In this document: positions 18,125 to 63,420 of the stretch, in pieces
Position numbering within the stretch: the stretch's first letter is position 1
How the letters are laid out: each line of letters starts with the position of its first letter
DNA from: Mobula hypostoma
Taxonomy: Eukaryota
Reading direction: 5' to 3'
NCBI RefSeq assembly: GCF_963921235.1
Contig: NC_086108.1
Coordinates: 47,308,001 to 47,372,000 of the forward strand
DNA length: 64,000 nucleotides
The notes under the pieces: model-generated
Told to the model about the DNA's origin: nothing
Seen by the model: the letters and a program-made list of their open reading frames with translations, nothing else
Database searches by the model: none
Translations under genes and position numbers: made by a program

Positions 18125-19451
18125 TCTTGAGGTCGAACTTCACTCCTGGCTTGGTAGGCTTCACAAGCCCTGAAATGTCAAGCAAAGGGGCCTCCTGCTG
18201 TTCATTAGAGTAAGTGCTTGCTAGGTGATCCTCAAGTTCTTGTTGAGAGATGTTAAGCTGCCCGCTCTTACTTTGTTCAAACAGATTCTTTGTGAACTCG
18301 TGAGGGTTCTCAAAGAACGACTTTCTTGCCTTCTCTCTCTTCTTTCTCTTTTTACGTTGTGACTCTGCACGACGGAGTGATGCTAATTTTATTCGAAAAT
18401 GCTCTCGGAGATCAGCAAGCCCTGGCTTGTCACCCTCACTTGCCACCTTCCACCTCTGTCTCAATTATCTAAGCTCTCTCCTCAACCTAATAATCTCCTT
18501 TTGGCGCCTGCTTGGTTGCTGTGTAGGCTTTGTTTTCTTCAACTTAACCAAACCAAACCTGTACTATCCAACGTCGTAAATCATATCGCACATCACTTCC
18601 AACTTTCTCTTTGATGTTCCCCTGAGCGTGTTCTCCAACATCATACTGATATCCTCAGCAAACACACGCCAAGCCTTCTTATCTGCCATTGCTGGCCACT
18701 TGACCTTCCTCTTCTTCTCTACCTCCTCGCCACCGCCATCATGCGAAGAATCTACCTGGGTACTGTGGTCTGAAACCTGACCTGGGTTATCTCTCGTCTG
18801 ACCTGGAGTATGATGACGCTTTCCAGTGCAAATCGTTGTGGCTTGTGAATCAGTGGTTGAAAAGACCACATCATCTGTGCTTGGTGAAGAAATCTCATCT
18901 TCATCCACTGGGATGGAATAGCACTTCAACTTTGCTTGGTGGACTCGTAAACCTTTAATGCTGGAAAACGCTCTCCCACACCAACACACTGGACACTCAG
19001 AGCCTCTTAGCCTAGCTCTTGGTCGTAGACGTTCCCTGTAATTAACTGTATTTCTCCGATTGGGTCCATCATTCTCCCTCCCTCTCGGAGGACCCCGAGG
19101 GTATGTTTCTCTGTATAAACTAGAAGCTTCAAGAGGTGGGTGCTCTTCTGAGCTGGTGCCCGGACTGCCAATCCTGACACCCCCGGTGCCAGTCTTTCCT
19201 GGCTGTCCGCTGTCTCTCCACGCTGTCACCGGACTATTCCCGGTTGCCAGCCAGACTATTCCTGGTAGTCACTGGTGTCCAGAACAAAAGAGTTACAAAA
19301 TACACATGGACTAAGATGTTAACTGTCCTGTGCTATCACCAGTGGGATCATCAGTTGATCTGCCACCTGTCTTCAGGAGTTTTGGCCCGCTTATGATCAA
19401 GACTTCTTCGAGGTGGTGGGTCAGCAGTGCTAAAGCACCACCTCCCACTGG
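18125..19451 (-). mobile_element. HERO-like (R2-group) non-LTR retrotransposon, N-terminal ORF part plus upstream leader
   Basis: One frame 19229-18125 with two in-frame stops (TAG at 18564-18566, TAA at 18465-18467). N-terminal zinc finger CWCGRAFSSIKGLRVHQAKLKC, then VKWPAM..KKAW, LRRAESQRKKRKKREKARKSFFENP, KSGQL; no RT domain retained. Confidence 0.8.
19339..19451 (-). ncRNA. Candidate permuted hammerhead-like ribozyme (this copy has G12->A)
   Basis: Minus strand order: gaaGTC-ttgatc ... gggcc-aAAA-ctcct ... gatcaa-CTGATGA-tccc; stem I ttgatc/gatcaa perfect, stem III 5 of 6 pairs, 9-bp closing stem ccagtggga/tcccactgg. Confidence 0.55.
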
Positions 19452-33931: not shown

Positions 33932-34654
33932 ATCAAGATAACCATGGTAATTGGTAAGTTTATAAAAGATGTTGGATGACAGTTTGTCTCCAGAGATGGA
34001 GACAGAGATATCAAGAAAGAGGAGGGAGGTGTCAGAGATGGACCAAGTGAATTTAAGGGCAGGGTGAAAGTTAGAGGTAAAGTTGATTAAATTGACGAGC
34101 TCAGCACAGGTGGTTGAAAAAGCACCAACACATTTGGCAATGTAGCAGAGAAAGAGTTGGGGAGTATTGCTGGGGAAGGCTTGGAACATGGACTGTTTTA
34201 TGTAGTCAATGAAGAGGCAGGCATAGCCAGGCCTATGGCTACCCCTCGAGTTTGGAGAAAAATAGAAAACCGACAGCACAATACAGGCCTTTCGGCCCAC
34301 AAAGCCGTGCTGAACATGTCCTTACCATAGAAGCATAGAACCATAGAAACTACAGCACAGAAACAACCTAGAACTACCTAGGCTTACCCATAGCCCTCTA
34401 TTTTTCTAAGCTCCATGTAGTGGGAGGAGCCGAAGGAAAAACTTTTGAGGGTGAGAACCAGTTGTGCCAGACAGAGGAGAGTGGTGGTGAAGGGGAATTG
34501 GTTGATTCTTTTGTCAAGAAAGACTCTGTTGATGGCTTTGCTGATGGGGGATGGAAGTGCATAGGGACTGAACATCCGTGGTGAAGATATGGTGGTCAGG
34601 GCTAGGGAGCTGAAAGTTACTGAGGAGATCGAGGGCTTGAGAAGTGCCATAGAT
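33932..34654 (-). mobile_element. Penelope-like RT fragment, interrupted by CR1 3' ends at about 34261-34419
   Basis: GYACLFIDYIKQSMF...QLFLCYI...NFHPALKFTWSISDTSLLFLDISVSISGDKLSSNIFYK and FTTDVQSLCTSIPH motifs of Penelope RT. Confidence 0.85.
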
Positions 34655-37600
34655 AGAAACATAGAAACATAGAAAATAGGTGCAGGAGTAGGCCATTCGG
34701 CCCTTTGAGCCTGCACCGCCATTTATTATGATCATGGCTGATCATCCAACTCAGAACCCCGCCCCAGCCTTCCCTCCATACCCCCTGACCCCCGTAGCCA
34801 CAAGGGCCATATCTAACTCCCTCTTAAATATAGCCAATGAACTGGCCTCAACAGTTTCCTGTGGCAGAGAATTCCACAGATTCACCACTCTCTGTGTGAA
34901 GAAGTTTTTCCTAATCTCGGTCCTAAAAGGCTTCCCCTTTATCCTCAAGCTGTGACCCCTCGTTCTGGACCTCCCCAACATCGGGAACAATTTTCCTGCA
35001 TCTAGCCTGTCCAATCCCTTTAGGATCTTATACGTTTCAATCAGATCCCCCCTCAATCTTCTAAATTCCAACGAGTAAAAGCCCAATTCATCCAGTCTTT
35101 CTTCATATGAAAGTCCTGCCATCCCAGGAATCAATCTGGTGAACCTTCTTTGTACTCCCTCTATGGCAAAGATGTCTTTCCTCAGATTAGGGGACCAAAA
35201 CTGCACACAATACTCCAGGTGTGGTCTCACCAAGGCCTTGTACAACTGCAGTAGTACCTCCCTGCTCCTGTACTCGAATCCTCTCGCTATAAATGCCAGC
35301 ATACCATTCGCCTTTTTCACCGCCTGCTGTACCTGCATGCCCACTTTCAATGACTGGTGTATAATGACACCCAGGTCTCGTTGCACCTCCCCTTTTCCTA
35401 ATCGGCCACCATTCAGATAATAATCTGTTTTCCTATTTTTGCCACCAAAGTGGATAACTTCACATTTATCCACATTAAATTGCATCTGCCATGAATTTGC
35501 CCACTCACCCAACCTATCCAAGTCACCCTGCATCCTCTTAGCATCCTCCTCACAGCTAACACTGCCACCCAGCTTCGTGTGATCCGCAAACTTGGAGATG
35601 CTGCATTTAACTCCCTCATCCAAGTCATTAATATATATTGTAAACAACTGGGGTCCCAGCACTGAGCCTTGCGGTACCCCACTAGTCACCGCCTGCCATT
35701 CTGAAAAGGTTCCGTTTATTCCCACTCTTTGCTTCCTGTCTGCTAACCAATTCTCCACCCACACTAATACCTTACCCCCAATACCGTGTGCTTTAAGTTT
35801 GCACACTAATCTCCTGTGTGGGACCTTGTCAAAAGCCTTTTGAAAATCCAAATATACCACATCCACTGGTTCTCCCCTATCCACTCTACTAGTTACATCC
35901 TCAAAAAATTCTATGAGATTCGTCAGACATGATTTTCCTTTCACAAATCCATGCTGACTTTGTCCGATCATTTCACCGCTTTCCAAATGTGCTGTTATCA
36001 CATCCTTGATAACTGACTCCAGCAGTTTCCCCACCACCGACGTTAGGCTAACCGGTCTATAATTCCCCGGTTTCTCTCTCCCACCTTTTTTAAAAAGTGG
36101 GGTTACATTAGCCACCCTCCAATCCTCAGGAACTAGTCCAGAATCTAACGAGTTTTGAAAAATTATCACTAATGCATCCACTATTTCTTGGGCTACTTCT
36201 TTAAGCACTCTAGGATGCAGACCATCTGGCCCTGGGGATTTATCTGCCTTCAATCCCTTCAATTTACCTAACACCACTTCCCTACTAACATGTATTTCGC
36301 TCAGTTCCTCCATCTCACTGGACCCTCTGTGCCTTACTATTTCTGGAAGATTATTTATGTCCTCCTTAGTGAAGACAGAACCAAAGTAATTATTCAATTG
36401 GTCTGCCATGTCCTTGCTCCCCATAATCAATTCACCTGTTTCTGTCTGTAGGGGACCTACATTTGTCTTTACCAGTCTTTTCCTTTTTACATATCTATAA
36501 AAGCTTTTACAGTCCGTTTTTATGTTCCCTGCCAGTTTTCTCTCATAATCTTTTTTCCCCTTCCTAATTAAGCCCTTTGTCCTCCTCTGCTGAACTCTGA
36601 ATTTTTCCCAGTCCTCAGATGAGCTGGCTAATTTGTATGCTTCTTCTTTGGAATTGATACTATCCCTAATTTCTCTTGTCAGCCACGGGTGCACTACCTT
36701 CCTTGATTTATTCTTTTGCCAAACTGGGATGAACAATTGTTGTAGTTCATCCATGCAACCTTTAAATGCTTGCCATTGCATATCCACCGTCAATCCTTTA
36801 AGTGTCATTTGCCAGTCTATCTTAGCTAATTCACGTCTCATACCTTCAAAGTTACCCCTCTTTAAGTTCAGAACCTTTGTTTCTGAATTAACTATGTCAC
36901 TCTCCATCTTAATGAAGAATTCCACCATATTATGGTCACTCTTACCCAAGGGGCCTCTCACGACAAGATCGCTAATTAACCCTTCCTCATTGCTCAGAAC
37001 CCAGTCCAGAATAGCCTGCTCTCTAGCTGGTTCCTCGACATGTTGGTTCAAAAAACCATCCCGCATACATTCCAAGAAATCCTCTTCCTCAGCACCTTTA
37101 TCAATTTGGTTCACCCAGTCTACATGTAGATTGAAGTCACCCATTATAACTGCTGTTCCTTTATTGCACACATTTCTAATTTCCTGTTTAATACTATCTC
37201 CGACCTCACTACTACTGTTAGGTGGCCTGTACACAACTCCCACCAGCGTCTTCTGCCCCTTGGTGTTACGCAGCTCTACCCATATCGATTCCACATCTTC
37301 CCAGCTTATGTCCTTCCTTTCTATTGCATTAATCTCTTCTTTAACCAGCAACGCCACCCCACCTCCCCTTCCTTCATGTCTATCCCTCCTGAATATTGAA
37401 TATCCCTGAACGTTGAGCTCCCATCCCTGGTCACCCTGGAGCCATGTCTCTGTGATCCCAACTATATCATAATCATTAATAACAATCTGCACTTTCAATT
37501 CATCCACCTTATTACGAATGCTCCTTGCATTGACACATAAAGCCTTCAGGCGCTCTTTTACAACTCTTTTAGCCCTTTTTAATGCTTGCCCTGGATTTGT

Positions 37601-37796
37601 CGGCCTGCCACTTTTACTTTTCTCCTTTGTACTTTTTGCTTCTACCCTCACTTTACACCCCTCTGTCTCTCTGCACTGGTTCCCATCCCTCTGTTGTGAA
37701 CTAACCTCCTCACACCTAGCCTCTTTAATTTGATTCCCACCCCCCAACCATTCTAGTTTAAAGTCACCTCAGTAGCCCCCGCTAATCTCCCTGCCA
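34655..37796 (-). mobile_element. Young CR1 LINE, 5'-truncated within ORF1
   Basis: (tttctatg)n 8-bp tail, 3' UTR, full ORF2, and the last ~14 codons of ORF1 (AGRLAGATEVTLN*); Penelope host resumes at 37797. Confidence 0.95.
34751..37762 (-). CDS. CR1 ORF2: APE endonuclease plus reverse transcriptase; open, no AUG start, RT motif FADD changed to FADH
   Basis: About 1000 stop-free codons with NARSIRNK, GITETW, VVYRPP, MGDFN, SDH, NYRPVSLTS, YLDFQKAFD, GVPQGSVLGP, KFADHTKL. Confidence 0.93.
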   Translation of the reverse strand, partial: FKLEWLGGGNQIKEARCEEVSSQQRDGNQCRETEGCKVRVEAKSTKEKSKSGRPTNPGQALKRAKRVVKERLKALCVNARSIRNKVDELKVQIVINDYDIVGITETWLQGDQGWELNVQGYSIFRRDRHEGRGGGVALLVKEEINAIERKDISWEDVESIWVELRNTKGQKTLVGVVYRPPNSSSEVGDSIKQEIRNVCNKGTAVIMGDFNLHVDWVNQIDKGAEEEDFLECMRDGFLNQHVEEPAREQAILDWVLSNEEGLISDLVVRGPLGKSDHNMVEFFIKMESDIVNSETKVLNLKRGNFEGMRRELAKIDWQMTLKGLTVDMQWQAFKGCMDELQQLFIPVWQKNKSRKVVHPWLTREIRDSINSKEEAYKLASSSEDWEKFRVQQRRTKGLIRKGKKDYERKLAGNIKTDCKSFYRYVKRKRLVKTNVGPLQTETGELIMGSKDMADQLNNYFGSVFTKEDINNLPEIVRHRGSSEMEELSEIHVSREVVLGKLKGLKADKSPGPDGLHPRVLKEVAQEIVDALVIIFQNSLDSGLVPEDWRVANVTPLFKKGGREKPGNYRPVSLTSVVGKLLESVIKDVITAHLESGEMIGQSQHGFVKGKSCLTNLIEFFEDVTSRVDRGEPVDVVYLDFQKAFDKVPHRRLVCKLKAHGIGGKVLVWVENWLADRKQRVGINGTFSEWQAVTSGVPQGSVLGPQLFTIYINDLDEGVKCSISKFADHTKLGGSVSCEEDAKRMQGDLDRLGEWANSWQMQFNVDKCEVIHFGGKNRKTDYYLNGGRLGKGEVQRDLGVIIHQSLKVGMQVQQAVKKANGMLAFIARGFEYRSREVLLQLYKALVRPHLEYCVQFWSPNLRKDIFAIEGVQRRFTRLIPGMAGLSYEERLDELGFYSLEFRRLRGDLIETYKILKGLDRLDAGKLFPMLGRSRTRGHSLRIKGKPFRTEIRKNFFTQRVVNLWNSLPQETVEASSLAIFKRELDMALVATGVRGYGGKAGAGF

Positions 37797-37955
37797 TGTA
37801 GGGGGAAGGGACTAAACTAAGGGGGTTAGAATGGAATCGAAGTATGAGGACATGACTTCAGTGGGACAGAAGCAAGTAGAGACAATAAGCCTATCCGGAC
37901 AGTGCAGTTGTGGATCTTGGGTCGGAGGTAGAAGTGCGCAGTACAGGGTTTCTAT
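37797..37955 (-). mobile_element. Penelope-like RT upstream fragment (continuation of 33932-34654)
   Basis: Removing the CR1 joins gaagtgccatagat to gtagggggaagggact; reverse frame contains FYLRPKIHN...RLIVSTC. Confidence 0.75.
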
Positions 37956-38069
37956 ATCCAGAGATGTTGCAGCAATCCTCAGCACCTTTGTAACTCACTA
38001 GCTATTAGCAGTAAAATAATTGAGAAAACCCGAGCAAATGCAGACATCAGTAAATGCAGGTTCTACACT

Positions 38070-38624
<555 letters not shown>

Positions 38625-40173
38625 TGTCACAATGGCGGGGCATTGGGAGCAAGGGTGGACCCAAATGCAAGACACATCTTGTGAGGTTACTTAGATTTAG
38701 TTTATTTTTCGATACCAGGAGAGCAAGGCAGGAGCAGGAGTAGCGAACTGGACAAGGACTGAGGACTACGACTAGGCTGGGACCAAGGGTCTGGGCTAGG
38801 ACTCGGAATCGACTCCCAGAACTAGAGGAGACATGAAGAGACTAGAGTATGGACTCCGAGCCCGAGACTGGGCAAGGACCCAGTACCTGGATCTTGCCTC
38901 GGGCTCAGACCCCAGAACCAGGCATGGACATAACACGGGCTAAGGAGAGGAGGAACATGGAAAACAGAGCCTCGGTCTCGGGAGAGCAGGTACATGGAAC
39001 CATAGACACATACACAGAACGCAGAGCCGGGACCCCTCCTTGGGTACAGGACATAGGGCCGGGACTCATGACCCTCCCCGGGGCAACGGCAAGATGGCCT
39101 GACTTACCCCATGGAGGCGAGGACAGGACAAGACATGACTCCCCGCGGGGCAACAGCAAGAAGGCCAGACTTATCCCCACGGAGGCGGGGACCAGACAAG
39201 ACAAAACATGACCCCCCCGGAGCAACAGCAAGACAGCCTGACACCCCACGGAGGCGTGGGCAAGACAAGACAAGACCAACACGAATGAACACCAGACAGT
39301 ACCTATCTAGCTCCGGCAATGGAACTAGACCGAAGTGCAGGCGGGGGCTGCAGACGAGGGCTAGAGGCGAGAGGGGCAGAGAAGGGATTCAGACAAGGGA
39401 GTAGGACAGGAATCACAGACCACCAGGGCCAGGACTTGACTCAGAACTGGGAAGCCGCCAGGGAAAGGACTTGACTTGGTGCTTGAATGCCGCTAGGGAC
39501 AGGACTTGACTTGGTGCTTGAATGCCACCAGGGCCCAACTTGACTTGGTGCTTGAATGCCGCCAGGGCCCAACTTGACTTGGTGCTTGAATGCCGCCAGG
39601 GCCAGGACTTGACTTGGTGCTTGAATGCCGCCAGGGCCAGGACTTGACTTGGTGCTTGAATGCCGCCAGGGTCAGGACTTGACTTGGTGCTTGAATGCCG
39701 CCGGAGCAAGGACTTGACTTGGTGCTTGAATGCCGCTGGAGCGAGGACTTGACTTGGAGCCTCCGGGTTGTGGCGAGCTCGCGACTCGGCCCGGAAACAG
39801 TAGACAGCGGTTCTTGATTCCCTCCGGCGGGTTAACTGACAGACCCACCTCGGTGAGGAAACTTTGCAGGCTTGCTTTGGCGAGGTAACTGGACAGGGTT
39901 GCTCCGGTGAGGAGAGGCGAATTACCGGCACTCACTTCCGCAGAGACTAGGCTTGCTCCGGCCGGATGACATCGACACACCGTACCTTGGATGACTTTGC
40001 AGACGCTCCCGCCCCGAACGGCTGAAAGCTGGAGACTATAAACTACCGGTTCAGCCGAATGTTAATTGCCTCTAATCACCAAAGTCGAGGGACACGGGAA
40101 AACAGGGAATCAACGGTCCGGATCATAACATAAACAAACTAAATTTAAAGGGACCCCGATCCGGACCATGACA
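38625..40173 (-). mobile_element. Solo LTR, 1549 bp (Gypsy-type)
   Basis: TGTCA...TGACA termini; perfect 5-bp TSD agagg at 38620-38624 and 40174-40178; AATAAA on the minus strand at 38701-38706; CpG-rich. Confidence 0.9.
39423..39760. repeat. 34-35-bp minisatellite, about 10 units, inside the solo LTR
   Basis: Unit ccagggccaggacttgacttggtgcttgaatgccg in tandem. Confidence 0.95.
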
Positions 40174-44594: not shown

Positions 44595-46102
44595 ATAAGA
44601 TGATAAGACCACTTGATACAGGAGCAGACTTAGGCCAATTGGCCCATCTCATCTGCTCCACCGTTCCATCGTAGTTGATTCATTACCCTGCTCAAACCCA
44701 GTCTCCTGCCATATCCCCATAACCTTTGACACTCTTACTAATCAAGAACCTATCAACCTCTACTTTAAATATACCCAACGACCTGGCCTCCACAGCTGTC
44801 TGCGGCAATGAATTCCACAGATTCACCACCCTCTGGCTAAAGAAGTTCTTCCTCAACTCTGTTCTAAGTGGGCCCTCTGGTCCTAGATTCCCACACTATA
44901 GGAAACAACTTCCACACATCTACTCTATCTAGCCCTTTAAATATTTGATATGTTTCAATGAAGACTCCCCACCACCACCCCCATTCTTCTAAATTCCAGT
45001 AAGTACAGGCCCAGAGGCATCAAATGCTCCTCGTATATTAACCTTTCCACTTTTGGAATCGTTCTTGTGAACCTCCTCTGGACCATCTCCAGTGCCAGCA
45101 CATCCTTTCTTGGATAAGGGGGTCAAAACCGTTCATAGTACTCCAAATGTGGTCTGACAGATGCCTTATTAAGTTTCAGCATTACTTCCTTGCTTTTATA
45201 TTCTTGTTCTCTCGAAATGAATGCTAACATTGCATTAGCCTTTCTTATAAGTAACTCAGCCTGCAAGTTAGCCTTTAGGGCAGCCCACACAAGGGCTCCC
45301 AAGTCCCTTTGCACTTCTAATTTTTGAATTGTCTCTCCATTTAGAAGATGGTCTATGCCTTTACTCCTTCAACCAACATGCATGATCATACAATTCCCTA
45401 CACTACCTTTCATCTGCCACTTCTTTGCCTATTCTACCAATCTGTCTCAGCCTTTCTGCAGACCCTATACTTCTCAGCACTATCTAACTGCTCCTCCGCC
45501 TATCTTTGTACTGTCCACAAACATGGCCACAAAGCCATTAATTCCATCATCCAAATCATTGACATATGAGAAAAAGCAGTCCAAATATTGACCTGTGTGG
45601 AACACCACCAGTCACTAGCAGTCAACCCGAAAAGGCCCCCTTTTTTCTCACTCCTTGCCCCCTGCCGCTTAGCCAGTCTTCTACCACATCAGCATCTTTC
45701 CTGTAGCATCATGGGTTTTTATCTTGTTAAGCAGCCTCTTGTCAAAGGCCTTCTGAAAATCCAAGTAAACAACATCTATTGACTCTACTTTGTCAATCTT
45801 GCCAGTTATTTCCTCAAATGATTCCGACAGGTTTCTCATGTAAGATTTCCCCTTAAGGAAACACACTGACTTTGGCGTATTTTATCATGTGTCCCCAAGT
45901 ACCTTGAAACCTCATCCTTAATAATGGACTCCAACATCTTCCCAACCACTACGGTCAGGCTTAATGGCCAATAATTTCTTTTTTTTACTGTTTCCCTCCC
46001 TTCTTAAAGTATGGAATGACATTTGCAATTTTCCAGTCTTCTGGAACTATTCCAGAATCTAATGATTCTTGAAAGATCATTACTAATGCCTCCACAACCT
46101 CT
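44595..46102 (-). mobile_element. CR1 LINE RT/3' portion, decayed
   Basis: DVVYLDFQKAFDK, KANAMLAFISR, VRPHLEY, QRVVNLWNSLPQ; multiple stops. Confidence 0.9.
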
Positions 46103-46114
46103 TCGCCTTAGAAG

Positions 46115-50679: not shown

Positions 50680-51275
50680 TTTTTGAAGAGCTGTGATGCA
50701 ATGCTGAGGCTTAATAAGGCATTAGTCAGACCGTATTTGGAATATTGTGAGCAATTTTGGTCCCCTTAACTTTGAAAGGATGTGCTGGCATTGGAGATGG
50801 CCCAGAGGAGGTTCACGAGAAAATGATCCCAAGAATGAAAGGGTTAATGAGGAGCATTTGATGGCTCTAGGCCTGCACTCACTAGAGCTCAGAGAGAGGG
50901 GATTTCACTAAAATCTGAAAGGCCTAGATAGAGTGGATGCAGAGAGGATGTTTTCTATAGTAGGGGAGCCTAGGACCAGAGAGCACAGCCTCAGAATAGG
51001 ACGTCCCTTTAGAACAAAGATGAAGAAAAATGTATTTAACCAGAGAGTAGTGAATCTGTGGAATTCATTACCACAGATAGCTGTGGAGGCTAAGTCATTG
51101 GGTGTATTTAAGGCTGTGGTTGATAGGTTCTTGATTAGTAAGGGTCTCAAAATACGGGGAGACCCAGAAGAATGGGGTTGAGAGGGGTAATAAGTCGACC
51201 ATGATGGAATGATGGAGCAAACTTGATGGGTCAAACAGCCTAATCCTGCTTCTATGTCTGATGGCCTTAAGATCT
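50680..51275 (+). mobile_element. CR1 LINE 3' fragment
   Basis: LVRPYLEYCEQFWSP, TREHSLRI, NQRVVNLWNSLPQ. Confidence 0.85.
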
Positions 51276-55311: not shown

Positions 55312-58230
55312 TAGAATATAGAACATTACAGCACATTACAGGTCCTTCGCCCACAATGTTCTACCAACCACGTAACCTACTCTAGAAACTGCCTTGAATT
55401 TCCGTACCGCATAACCTTCTATTTTTCTCGTCTCCATGTACCCATCTCCTCTGCACCCTTTCTATGGTTTCCACGTCCTTCCTATAGTGAGGTGGCCAAA
55501 ACTGAACACAGTACTCCAAGTGGGGTCTGACCAAGGTCTAATATAGCTGCAACATTACCTCACGGTTCTTGAACTCAGTCCCATGGTTAATAAAGGCCAA
55601 CACACCATGCGCCTTCTTAACAACACTGTCAACCTGCGTAGCAGCTTTGAGTGTCCTATGGACATGAACTCCAAGATCTCTCTGATCCTCCAGACTACCA
55701 AAAACCTTACCATTATTATTATGTCCTGTCTTCAAATTTGACCTCCCAAAATGAACCACTTCACACTTATCTGGGTTGAACTCCATATGCCACTTCTCAG
55801 CCCAGTTCTGCATCCTATCAATGTCCTGCTGTAACCTCTGACAGCCCTCCACACTATCCACAACACCTCCAACCTTTGTGTCATCAGCAAACTGAGTAAC
55901 CCACCCCCTACCTCCTCATCCAGATCATTTATAAAAATCACAAAGAGGAGGGGTCCCAGAACAGATGCGGAACACCACTGGTCACCAACCTCCATGCAGA
56001 ATATGAACCATCTACAACCACCCTTTGCCTTCTGTGAGAAAGCCAATTCTGGATCCACAAAGCAATGTCTTTTTTGATCCCATCCCTCCTTACTTTCTGA
56101 ATGAGCCTTGCATGGGGAACCTAATCAAATGCCGTACTGAAATTCTTATACACTACATCCACTGCTCTACCTTCATCAATGTGTCTTGTTACATCCTCAA
56201 AAAATTCAATCAGGTTCGTAAGGAATGTCCTGTTCTTGACAAAGCCATGCTGACTATCCCTAATCAGATTATGTCTCTCCAAATGCTCATAAATCCTGCC
56301 TCCAACAACTTGCCCACCACTGATCTATACTGGTCTATAATTTCCTGGGCTATCTCTACTCCTTTTCATGAACAAGGGAACAACATCCGCAACCCTCCAA
56401 TCCTCCGGAACCTCTCTCGTCCCTATTGATGATGCAAAGATCATCGCCAGAGGCTCAGCAATCTCCACCCTCACTTCCCACAGTAGCCTGGTGTATACCC
56501 TATCCAGACCCGGTGACTTATCCAAATTAATTCTTTTCAAAAGCTCCAGCACATCTTCTTTCTTAATGTCTATATGGTCAAGCTTTTCAGTCCACCGTAA
56601 TTCATCTCCACAATTGCCAAGGTCCTTTTTCCGGTGAATACTGAAGCAAAGTATTCATTAAGTACCTCCACTACCTCCTCCAACTCCATGCACATGTTTC
56701 CACTATCGCACCTGATTGATCTTATTCTCACACGGCTCATCCTTTTGCTCTTCACACACTTGCAGAATGCCTTGGAGTTTTCCTTAATCTTGCTCACCAA
56801 GGCCTTCTCATGGCCCCTTCTGGCTCTCCTAATTCCATTCTTAAGCTCCTTCCTGGCAACCTTGTAATTTTCTAGAGCACTTATAGTATGTAGGTTCTTG
56901 AATCTTTTATAAGCTTTTATTTTCTTTTTAGCCAGGTATTCTACATCCTTTGTACACCATGTTTTTTTTTTACCCTACCATCCTTTCCCTGCCTCAATGG
57001 AACATACCTACACAGAACTCCATGCAAACGTTCCCTGAACATTTGCCACATTTCTGCTGTGCATTTCCCTGAGAACATCTGCTCCCAATTAATGCTCCCG
57101 AGTTCCTGCCTAATAGCATCATATTTCCCCCTTCCCTAATTAAATGTTTTCCCAGATTGTCTGCTCCTATCCCTCTCTAGCACGATGGTAAAGGTGACTG
57201 AGTTGTGATCACTACCTCCAAATTGCTTTCCCACCTAGAAATCTGACACCTGACCAGGTTCATTTCCCAATACCAGATCAAGTACAGCCTCTCTTCTAGT
57301 TGACTTATCTATACATTGCGTCAGGAAACCTTCCTGAACACACCTAATAAACTCCACCCGAACCAAGCTCCTTGCTCTAAGGAGATGCCAGTCAATATTG
57401 GGAAAGTTAAAATCAACCATCACAACAGCCCTATTATTTTTGTACCGTTCCAGAATCTGCCTCTCTATCTGCTCCTTGATGTCTCTGTTACTATTGGGGG
57501 GGGGGTCTATAAAAATACCCAGTAGAGTTATTGCTCCCTTCCTGTTTTTGGCTTCCACCCACACTGACTCAGTCGACAATCCCTCCATGACTTCCTCCTT
57601 TTCTGCTGCCGTGATACTATCCCTGATTAGCAATGCCACTCCCCCACCTCTTTTGCCTCCCTTCCTGTCCTTCTTGAAACATCTAAACCCCGGCACACTA
57701 ATCAGCCATTCCTGCTCCTGGGACATCCAAATCACTGTAATGGTCACAGCATCATAGTTCCATATATTGATCCATGCTCCAAGCTCATACACCTTGTTTA
57801 TGATACTCCTTGCATTAAAATAGACACATCTCAAACTATCTGGCTGAGTGCATCTTTGCTCTATCATTCCTCACAAACTCCCTACAAGCTGTCTCTACTT
57901 GTGCGCCAACTGCCCCATCCTCTGCCTCTTCATTTCGGTTTCTACACCCCTGAAAATCCAGTTTAAACCCTCCCCAATACCATCAGCAAACTTCCCTTCC
58001 AGGATATTTGTTCCTGTCCAGTTCAGGTGCAACCTGCCCCACTTGTACAGGTCACCCCTTCCCCAGAATATTCTGCACCTGCTCAGAGATATCCTGGATC
58101 CTAACACCTGGGTAGTAACACATTATCTTGGTGTCTCTTTTTCTGCTACAGAAGCTCCTATCCATCCCCCCAACTATCGCGTCGCCGATGACTATTGCTC
58201 CACCTGACTTCATCCTACCTTCCTGAGGCT
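55312..58230 (-). mobile_element. CR1 LINE, near full length, decayed (ORF1 esterase end, endonuclease, RT, tail)
   Basis: ORF1 AIVIGDAIV...LHLNWTGTNIL (SGNH-esterase-like); ORF2 CVYFNARSI, KSPGLD, NYRPV, KWHMEFNPDKCEV; ttctat tail; internal deletion near 55447. Confidence 0.9.
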
Positions 58231-58357
58231 CAGAACTTTTACTGAGAAGTTGCTCTGAACAAAAATACCCATTTTTCCAGAATAACATGAAGGAAATACA
58301 AACATATACTAAGGCAGCTGTGCAAATCAAAATGCCATCAAAATGTCAACAACTCAC

Positions 58358-59220: not shown

Positions 59221-60407
59221 AAGGTTGAGCAGTAGATGTGGTGTATATGGATTTCAGCAAGGCATTTGATAAGGTATCCCATGCAAGGCTTATTGAGAAA
59301 GTAAGGAGGCATGGGATCCAAGGGGACCTTGCTTTGTGGATCCGGAACTGGCTTGTCCACAGAAGGCAAAGAGTGGTTGTAGACAGATCATATTCTGCAT
59401 GGAGGTCAGGGACCAGTGGTGTGCCTCAGGGATCTGTTCTCGGACCCCTACTCTTTGTGATTTTTATAAACGACCTGGATGAGGAAGTGAAGGGATGTGT
59501 TAGTAAATTTACTGATGACACAAAGGCTGGGGGTGTTGTGGATAGTGTGGAGGGCTGTCAGAGGTTACAGCAGGACATTGATAAGATGCAAAACAGGGCT
59601 GAGAAGTGGCAAATGGAGATTATCCCAGATAAGTGTGAAGTGGTTCATTTTGGTAGGTCAAGTATGATGGCAGAATATAGCATTAATGGTAAGACTCTTG
59701 GCAGTGTGGAGGATCAGAAGGATCTTGGGGTCTGAGTCCATAGGACACTCAAAGTTGCTACGCAGGTTGATTCTGTGGTTAAGAAGGCATACGATGCATT
59801 GGCCTTCATCAATCTTGGGATTGAGTTTAGGAGCCGAGAGGTAATGTTGCAGCTATATAGGACCCTGGTCAGACCCCACTTGCTCAATTCTGGTCGCCTC
59901 ACCACAGGAAGGATGTGGAAACCATAGAAAGAGTGCAGAGGAGATTTACAAGGATGCTGCCTGGATTGGGAGCATGCCTTTTGAGAAAAGGTTGAGCAAA
60001 CTCGGCTTTTTCTCCTTGGAGTGACGGAGGATGAGAGGTGATCTGATAGAGCTGTATAAGATGATGAGAGGCATTGATCGTGTGGGTAGTCAGAGGCTTT
60101 TTCCCAGGGCTGAAATGCTAGCACGAGAGGGCACAGTTTTAAGGTGTTTGGAAGTAGGTACAGAGGAGATGTCAGGGGTAAGTATTTTTTTACACAGAGG
60201 GTGGTGAATGCATAGAATGGGCTGCCAGCGACGGTGGAGGAGGCGGATACGATAGGGTTTTTTTAAGAGACTCCTGGATAGGTACATGGAGCTTAGAAAA
60301 ATAGAGGGCTATGGGTAACCCTAGGTAATTTCTAAGGTAAGGATATGTTCGGCACAGCTTTGTGGGCCAAAGGGCATGTATTGTGCTGTAGGTTTTCTAC
60401 GTTTCTA
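59220..60407 (+). mobile_element. CR1 LINE RT/3' portion
   Basis: VYMDFSKAFDKV, SGVPQGSVLGPLLF, SKFTDDTK; tttctacgtttctat tail. Confidence 0.92.
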
Positions 60408-61359: not shown

Positions 61360-63420
61360 TGGGACGAGGCTGGTCTTCAGTTTATGGTTTTGAACTGGGG
61401 GAAAGCTGATTTCAATAACACAGAACCTGGTGAAAGTTAGTTGATACGTGAGAATTTTCTAAAAGAGAGTTATTATGAATTCAGAGCCAACGTATTCTAT
61501 AAGTGAAAGGCAAAGATGGCAAGAATAAGAAATCTTTGACTACAGAACATTTTGATCCAGAGAGGGAAAAACAAAGGAAAGCTATGGGAGGGAAAGGAAA
61601 CTAGGTTTCAAGGAGCTTCTTGAGAAATGTTGAGCATGTAGATTACAATTTAGGGTGTCCAAAGAGCAGCCATGAATACCCTTGGCAAATAAGATTTAAG
61701 CAGAATCCCAGTATATTCTGCAAGTATACTAAGAACAAGAGGATAGCCAGGGAAAGAGTAAATTCCCCAAAGGACCAAAGGGTTAAACTATGTTAGGAGC
61801 CAGGTGATGTGGACAAGTCTTAAACAAGTACATACTTTTCATCTGTATTCACCAAAAGGAAAGACATGGAAATTAGTCAGTTCAGAGAGAGGTACAAGGA
61901 CATTCTGGAGCAGATCTTTATCAAGAAGGAGAAGGTGCTAGATGTCATGGAACGCTTTAGAATTGACGCGTTCCCAAGGCTGGCTGAGATCTATCCCAAG
62001 TTGCTATTAGAAGCAAGGGAGGAGACACTTGGAACCCTGACAGAGATTTTTGTATCTTCTCTAGCCATGGGTAAGGTACAAGAAGACAGCAGAAATGCTA
62101 ATGATTTTCCTGTATTTAAGGGGGGCAGCGGGGATTAACTATTTAACTATAGGCCAGCCTATAATTCAGTGGAAAGGAAATTATTGGAGAAAATCCTAAG
62201 GAATGGGATGTATGTACATTTGGAAGGGCAGCAGCTCATCAGGCATGGCCAGCATGGCTTTGTGCAGGAGAAATCAGAAATCCCGACTTGACTCACTAAC
62301 TTGATTGAGCTTTTAGAGAAAACAACTAAGAAAACTGATGGGGAGAAAGGATGGCAGATGTTGTCTATGTGGACTTCAGTAAGGTATTTGCCAATGCCTG
62401 GCATGGTAGGCTGGTCCAGAGAGGTCAAGGCAAATTGGTTAACTGAATCCAGATTGCTTATGGAAGGCAGAGGGGAGTAGTGGAAGGAAGAATTTGTGAC
62501 CAGTGGTACCTCACAAAAGATTGGTGTTGAGACCCTTTTTGTTTGTAATATATATTAATATTCTGGATGAGAATATAGGAAGTATGAATAATAAATTTGT
62601 GGCTGACATGCATGTTGTTGGTGTTGTGGATATCGAGGACGGTTGTCTAAGCTTTCAGCAGAATACAGATAGAAGGCAAGCCAGAGTGTTGAATGGAATT
62701 TAACCCTGACAAATGTGAGATGATGCATTTTGGGAATTCAGATAGATGTAGGACATATGCATAAATAACAAGGCTCGAGGAAATGATGATGACCAGAGGC
62801 TCCTTGGGACTCAGGTCCATAATTCCCTGAAAGTAGCTGTACAGCGAGGTGCTTGGTGTAGAAGGCATACAGCATGCTTGTTTTCACCGGCAAGGGCAAA
62901 TAATATGAAAGTTGGTGCATTTTGTTGCAAATTCAGAAAATACAGATTAGAGCATACCTAAGTGCAACTCTGTTTACCACGTTATTGAAATGATGTGGTT
63001 TTACTTGAGAAGTGCAAAGGAAATTCACCAGGCTGTTGTCTGGACTAGAGAACTGCAGCGATAAGGAGAAATTTAATAGACTGATTTTGTGTTCTCTGGA
63101 GCAGATTTTGGTCGGGGATGATCAAATGGATGTATATAAAATCATGTGAGGCACAGGGAGGAGCGAGAGTAGAATATTTACTCCTAAGATAAGGGTATGA
63201 AAAACAAGATGCATGGGTTTAAAGTTAGAGGAAGGGCTTCTGAAGGGGATTTGAGGGGAAAGTTTATTTCATTCAGAGAGCGATTGATATCTAGAACTTG
63301 CCACATCATTACATTCATGAAACAGTTACACAGGCACGCGAATAAGCATGGTGTAGATGGATATGGACTTAAAAGTCAGCATCAACATGTTGGGCCAAAA
63401 TGGCCCATATTTGTGCTATG
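61360..63420 (+). mobile_element. Old CR1 ORF2 fragment
   Basis: FSSVFTK, IYPKLLLEAREE, QHGFVQEKS, NKFVADM, FNPDKCEMMHFG; many disablements. Confidence 0.8.

Follow-up and report, generated by a model that had tools for sequence, protein, structure and literature searches.

CR1 retrotransposons of the kind found in this window (64,000 nucleotides of Mobula hypostoma contig NC_086108.1) probably use programmed −1 ribosomal frameshifting to make an ORF1-ORF2 fusion carrying the endonuclease and the reverse transcriptase (RT), as judged from sequence comparison. We favor this reading for the family because a slippery heptamer at the ORF1/ORF2 junction is under synonymous constraint, because canonical heptamers have been exchanged for one another, and because the −1 frame opens just 5′ of the heptamer. 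The sequence-only reading had proposed such a fusion for the window element itself. This proposal is supported for the family but does not hold for the window copy, and as that copy is 5′-truncated and has an altered RT motif, the frameshift claim concerns the CR1 family.

The junction in the window and the state of the element

The element lies on the minus strand, and we take it to be a CR1. Its slippery heptamer, T_TTA_AAC, occupies 37756..37762; it reads Leu-Asn in the ORF1 frame, where these are the last two residues, and Phe-Lys in the −1 frame. The ORF1 stop TAG (37753..37755) follows directly, and both coordinates, first given by the sequence-only reading, were verified on the minus strand. 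Equally correct was its description of a −1 frame running from the heptamer into ORF2 and shut by the TGA at 37769..37771, two sense codons 5′ of the heptamer. This frame is open over 1005 codons (34751..37768), 1003 of them 3′ of the heptamer, and encodes an APE-type endonuclease followed by an RT (Pfam PF03372, PF14529, and PF00078), with no AUG 5′ of the endonuclease motifs. The start in the open-reading-frame track is a TTG at 37745..37747. The first Met, within MGDFN, is residue 209 of the stop-to-stop frame, or residue 202 counted from the TTG as the earlier reading had it, and it does lie behind most of the endonuclease motifs: NARS, ITETW, GGGVAL, and VYRPP all precede it. A G-rich tract at 37736..37749 has a G4Hunter-like score of 1.44, at the 98th percentile of ORF2 windows. 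The GGG at +11 to +13 past the heptamer (37743..37745, a 10-nt spacer) opens a G run and is a candidate stimulator. The ten-letter junction motif alone is not above chance in the 64-kb window (6 matches at ≤1 mismatch, 6.79 expected); it is the position and conservation of the heptamer, rather than its mere presence, that exceed chance.

Only 41 nt (13 codons) of ORF1 remain in this copy, as a remnant that includes the stop (37753..37796), and the element starts at 37796. That this is a 5′ truncation point is indicated by depth and by loose ends in four of four runs. Comparison of the four runs over 37300-38100 reveals a high-copy repeat with depth collapsing at 37796, and contigs from every run (45, 65, 1, and 5 contigs) exit the window at this position and continue into the end of an esterase domain. 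Past 37796, those contigs encode the terminal block (His-Leu-Asn) of the ORF1 esterase. Run X9, an RNA run by guess, consists of contigs only and informs on neither transcription nor strand. The earlier statement that ORF1 ends at the heptamer in the proper phase is thus right for the family, as judged from other copies, but the window itself holds only 13 codons of this ORF. In addition, codon 35581-35579 encodes His where all 79 relatives with the motif have Asp (the second RT Asp). The window copy is most likely inactive and, because its ORF1 is missing, it cannot itself frameshift ORF1 into ORF2.

A short 3′ UTR (34653..34750) ends in the TTTCTATG octamer repeat, presumably a typical CR1 end. 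No exact target-site duplication of ≥6 nt was found around the element. Its best named relatives are stingray proteins, which points to a cartilaginous fish as probable host, no relative was seen in the viral contigs scanned, and a quick RT tree without curated CR1 references groups it with stork and shark-type proteins. None of the 21 variants listed within the element falls in 37721-37796; this interval was picked afterwards and the result is not counted as evidence. The flanks at 37797-37990 and 34400-34652 (minus strand) look like adjoining pieces of one older RT-like repeat split by the CR1. They have no Pfam match, and we take their motifs to recall Penelope-like elements. By depth, the upstream flank is itself a repeat. 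Farther 5′ of the element are a long CA dinucleotide run (38280-38500) and a GC-rich tandem-like repeat with a recurring unit in translation (39400-39900).

The window also contains a second, decayed CR1 lineage (55370..58231, minus strand; tblastn and Pfam), with ORF1 esterase remnants at 58231-57961, a broken ORF2 from about 57846, and an endonuclease 41% identical to that of the first element. Motif search and alignment place its junction at 57948..57967. The esterase remnants finish in Gly-Leu-Asn on an identical heptamer (57967-57961), and an identical GGG lies at +11 to +13. Truncated CR1-like RT fragments, none with a junction-motif match, are found at 44740-46104, 50686-51136, 59223-60263, and 61662-63227, and a 234-codon open frame at 18567-19268 (minus strand) has a weak C2H2 zinc-finger match (E 0.04).

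Esterase-type junctions and the candidate stimulator

Relatives were fetched by endonuclease patterns alone and were therefore not selected for the heptamer. They comprise 86 loci, 80 from metagenomes (the best 80 of 208) and six from genome contigs. Twelve of the 86 were dropped, five being open to the contig end and seven lacking the endonuclease N-terminus. Endonuclease and RT trees built by quick methods separate several groups, whose lineages are related, so that junction and locus counts are not independent. CR1-type ORF2 sequences also occur in records labelled bacterial or archaeal (L081, L082, L083, and P0007), which are most likely animal contamination of those assemblies; a search of one contaminated bacterial assembly found no junction.

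An SGNH esterase ORF1 of the window's kind is seen in the loose ends past 37796, in the second window copy, and in relatives (PF13472). All nine junctions of this type (group A: seven loci and the two window copies) carry TTTAAAC in the −1 phase; the group A endonucleases are 36-45% identical to that of the window element and 30-85% identical to each other. Four more members of the group are 5′-truncated and have no junction. When the nine junctions are aligned, without gaps, 10 of 97 columns are invariant, namely the heptamer and the GGG at +11 to +13, and nothing else. A stop follows the heptamer directly in seven of the nine (TAG in six, TGA in one), and two decayed copies read TGG and AGA there. 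In eight junctions, a T always precedes Leu-Asn, whereas the codon that this T completes encodes Thr, Ala, Ser, Val, His, or Gly; the chance of NNT-TTA-AAC given Leu-Asn is about 0.008-0.011 per lineage. The sequence-only reading had suggested looking for conservation of the heptamer beyond amino-acid need, and the fixed synonymous positions bear this out across CR1 junctions. In the −1 frame, the G at +11 ends a TTG (Leu), CAG (Gln), or AAG (Lys) codon and, because these codons differ, is not explained by one amino acid.

The −1 frame shuts 1-14 codons 5′ of the heptamer in eight esterase-type junctions, and no conserved start codon was found at or just past the ORF1 stop, where the candidate positions read TGG, ATG, TCG, GAC, AGG, TTT and TTG, AAG, CAG. 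Among the seven intact junctions, an AUG lies two bases past the stop in two (L001 and L002) and 22 codons on in a third (L019); in the other four, the first catalytic Asn comes before any AUG. A consensus AUG 5′ of the endonuclease, which the sequence-only reading had not seen in the window, is likewise missing from the group, only two of the seven having one beside the stop.

Protein records extend the comparison. Leu-Asn is the C-terminal end of 59 of 84 esterase ORF1 proteins, although 49 of these 59 come from one cluster, and it is the majority ending in eight of 18 esterase clusters (65% identity) and not in the other ten. In the large Leu-Asn cluster, FKLVGQGG is found in one frameshifted member, and two members whose stop is mutated continue with x-x-G-R-G. 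Together, these readings imply a putative TTTAAAC heptamer and GGG in that cluster too. The −1 frame of stork and stingray gene models gives FKL-x-x-[KQ]-G. A large ORF1-like family (P0132-P0192) has an SH3 domain before the SGNH esterase and mostly ends in Tyr-Leu-Asn.

What would stimulate a shift is less clear. At the window junction, a region very poor in C, no local stem was found (z −0.24 and −0.01, pseudoknots not being modelled explicitly) and no Rfam match. RNAalifold gave a consensus of 0 pairs for the junctions, group mean fold z scores were −0.6 and −0.8, and a two-tier G4 pattern fits only four of the nine. The G run has potential pairing partners at long range (best −15.5 kcal/mol), which we do not claim as structure. 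The earlier reading had taken the G tract for a stimulator at the coronavirus-like distance of 5-9 nt. The tract is where that reading placed it, but the conserved GGG lies at +11 to +13 and forms no fold, so the likeness to coronaviruses does not hold. According to passages in PMC3919603, U3A3C without a stimulator shifts at 0.4% in vitro, and G-quadruplexes can stimulate −1 shifts on U3A3C with an optimum at 6-8 nt. We regard the stimulator as the weakest link of the frameshift reading. It is possible that a structure-free site shifts rarely, and this could suffice for a LINE; the ORF2 proteins of L1 and SART1 are made in small amounts.

Heptamers of other clades

A second clade (group B) has an ORF1 that differs from the esterase type, with a weak PHD match in one of two members scanned. 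Across 15 distinct members, the amino acid is conserved at 35 ORF1 columns, of which just three use a single codon: these are the codons of an A_AAA_AAC heptamer, Ala GCA, Lys AAA, and Asn AAC, with two members having Ser TCA and so retaining the A. As these 15 had been chosen by having the heptamer, the whole clade was rechecked, and A_AAA_AAC is present in all 20 rows that hold the region (of 22 rows, two lack the region; two are duplicates). One further locus outside the tree has A_AAA_AAU. In group B, 54-72 codons separate the heptamer from the ORF1 stop. No stop interrupts the −1 frame over this overlap, for which the median chance is 0.02 per locus; the frame shuts 1-29 codons 5′ of the heptamer. 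An AUG precedes the first catalytic Asn in six of the 15 loci, and in many loci of the group the ORF1 stop is at the endonuclease start.

Other heptamers are found elsewhere. In L003 and L083, U_UUU_UUA precedes the stop by one codon, and these are the only loci with a candidate stimulatory hairpin downstream, 8-9 nt away (z −4.0 and −2.3). L016 has A_AAA_AAU. In group C, eight loci (L005, L009, L013, L017, L028, L030, L032, and L051) share a non-canonical G_GGG_GA(C/A). The −1 frame opens 2-10 codons ahead of it, and the ORF1 stop follows at a distance of 66-99 nt. A further member, L018, has the canonical G_GGA_AAC at the matching position. G_GGG_GA(C/A) is possibly a single-tRNA slip site. 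In a third clade, a Lys-Asn pair outside the overlap uses mixed codons (6 AAA and 3 AAG; 3 AAC and 6 AAT). Most of a distant clade has an AUG well 5′ of the endonuclease and lacks a long ORF1 overlapping in the −1 frame; we use this clade as an approximate negative group.

For an overall tally, four duplicates were dropped and only loci with an ORF1 of ≥100 codons in the −1 overlap were kept. An in-phase heptamer falls within the first 30 codons of the overlap in 20 of 29 loci, compared with 3 and 3 off-phase and 27 of 244 control windows. Of the nine remaining loci, eight carry G_GGG_GA(C/A) at the corresponding position and the ninth has no such sequence.

ORF1 is in frame with the endonuclease in a few single copies or gene models: L022 (about 700-1000), L011 (about 2200-2500), P0002, and P0121. 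We rejected these as proof of a working fusion, since they are single decayed copies or gene-model effects. No long in-frame esterase-endonuclease-RT protein was present among 492 candidates, which is weak evidence.

Proposed mechanism, alternatives, and known systems

In the mechanism that we propose, translation would in most cases end at the UAG, with ORF1p set free. On a small fraction of ribosomes, held up while UUA and AAC occupy the P and A sites, the tRNAs would pair anew with UUU AAA and translation would continue into Leu-Glu-Trp-Leu-Gly, giving a minority ORF1-ORF2 fusion. The predicted stimulator is the G run at its fixed distance, bound by a protein or forming a weak quadruplex, rather than a local stem or pseudoknot, and slow termination may assist the shift. 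Part of PMC5009743 counts U_UUA_AAC, A_AAA_AAC, and G_GGA_AAC among the heptamers most prone to shifting on mammalian ribosomes. A bolder extension is conceivable, although we are inclined to doubt it as a whole: a large animal branch of CR1 would make its RT only as a fusion by −1 shift, at least four heptamers would have been swapped while ORF1 types were replaced, and the esterase lineage would use a structure-free GGG stimulator exactly 11 nt downstream, beside the stop, read by a host or element protein.

The main rival is termination-reinitiation as in L1 and SART1, in which ribosomes would restart near the ORF1 stop, on AUG or another codon, and the conserved bases would serve the restart. 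According to part of PMC2881922, reinitiation is established for both LINEs tested, and L1 ORF2 initiation is described as AUG-independent in a passage of PMC5009743, so that a missing AUG proves little alone. The AUGs just past the stop in L001 and L002, together with that of L019, would allow three of the seven intact junctions to reinitiate, and ORF1 stops at the endonuclease start in many second-clade loci fit a restart as well. However, reinitiation leaves four kinds of X_XXY_YYZ heptamer in the −1 phase unexplained and gives no reason for an A_AAA_AAC fixed so far from the ORF1 stop while the −1 frame between the two is open; nor do the intact junctions share a start codon, four of them lacking any AUG before the first catalytic Asn. 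We consider it unlikely as the explanation of these sites, and it may coexist with frameshifting where an AUG follows the stop.

Three further explanations fit poorly. If the conserved bases were a splice acceptor or another RNA or DNA signal, for example a CTAG 3′ splice site joining an upstream AUG exon, the YAG with which TTTAAAC-TAG ends in six of nine junctions would be accounted for, and so might the G runs, which are known splicing elements. Yet L041 has TGA, the A_AAA_AAC, U_UUU_UUA, and G_GGA_AAC sites have no AG there, no polypyrimidine tract is present, and none of the rows listed has a joint or loose end at 37752-37753; we give this explanation very little credence. It is about as improbable that the constraint is on amino acids only, with ORF1 needing its terminal Leu-Asn and ORF2 starting internally and independently of ORF1. 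Leu-Asn plausibly ends a helix of the esterase fold, and the 59 of 84 proteins ending in it agree with such a need, but this would not fix synonymous positions at the heptamer, and the Lys-Asn pair of the third clade, outside the overlap, is free to use mixed codons. Slippage of the transcribing polymerase, adding a base so that some RNAs have both ORFs in frame, seems hardly credible. The run of six A in the second clade and the single copies reading from ORF1 into the endonuclease are what it would produce or need, but TTTAAAC has no run longer than three, the conservation of phase points to tRNA re-pairing, and slipped RNAs would have left many genomic copies, whereas no heptamer indel is listed (in contigs only).

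If −1 frameshifting is indeed used, a gag-pol-like fusion would shift the annotated start of CR1 ORF2, would link the RT physically to an ORF1 particle with a membrane-binding esterase, and would leave the ORF1p:ORF2p ratio to be set by a recoding signal. It would also explain why intact CR1 copies appear to lack a start codon. The candidate recoding element is 30 nt long. Its heptamer is kept in jumping genes of sharks, birds, and other animals, whose way of making the RT would then differ from that of mammalian LINE-1. Chromosomal −1 frameshifting would gain an example of very high copy number, and the stimulator may be of a new type. No other repeat is as abundant in the chicken genome as CR1 (11.8%) according to PMC11835228, which in the part examined mentions frameshifting only for retroviruses.

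The vertebrate esterase-type CR1 elements (ORF1 type IVB, subgroup CR1_7) described in parts of PMC4120745 and PMC3905857 have, as here, an SGNH esterase ORF1 and an ORF2 with APE and RT; the word "frameshift" is absent from the main text of both papers, and "CR1" was not found in the examined part of the broad frameshifting review PMC5009743. We found no report of CR1 frameshifting in the literature searched, which covers few subscription or older CR1 papers, and a prior suggestion is possible. Three older CR1 papers reportedly describe closely spaced or overlapping ORFs and may already suggest it. As an idea, frameshifting is not new to LINEs, given that a passage of the review PMC5911963 states that Dictyostelium TRE5-A and TRE3-A, which are APE-type non-LTR elements, need a −1 frameshift for ORF2; the examined part of a second review, PMC5633606, has no occurrence of "frameshift". 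Unlike CR1, the TRE elements are amoebal and belong to another lineage with another ORF1. The present comparison adds that clades have swapped one heptamer for another and that the GGG keeps a constant distance.

The closest likeness in layout is to retroviral gag-pol of the Rous sarcoma virus type and to the U_UUA_AAC of IBV, described in passages of PMC5009743. As in CR1, an X_XXY_YYZ heptamer is in phase, at the end of a structural ORF it opens a −1 ORF bearing the RT, and ribosomes that do not shift stop soon after. However, CR1 is a non-LTR element, no pseudoknot or stem was found at the window site, and Pfam detects no protease domain in its ORF2 to cut the fusion. Mammalian L1 and silkworm SART1 (part of PMC2881922) share with CR1 a bicistronic LINE RNA in which ORF2 depends on translation of ORF1, but their reinitiation yields a separate ORF2p, whereas for CR1, whose ORFs overlap in the −1 frame, we predict a fusion. 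Finally, PRRSV, in a passage of PMC5009743, has CCCANCUCC 11 nt 3′ of its shift site, bound by nsp1-beta and PCBP. It resembles the esterase-type junctions, by analogy only, in that a short motif without structure sits at a constant spacing, about 11 nt past the shift site, and differs in that the CR1 motif is G-rich and the protein that would read it is only hypothetical.
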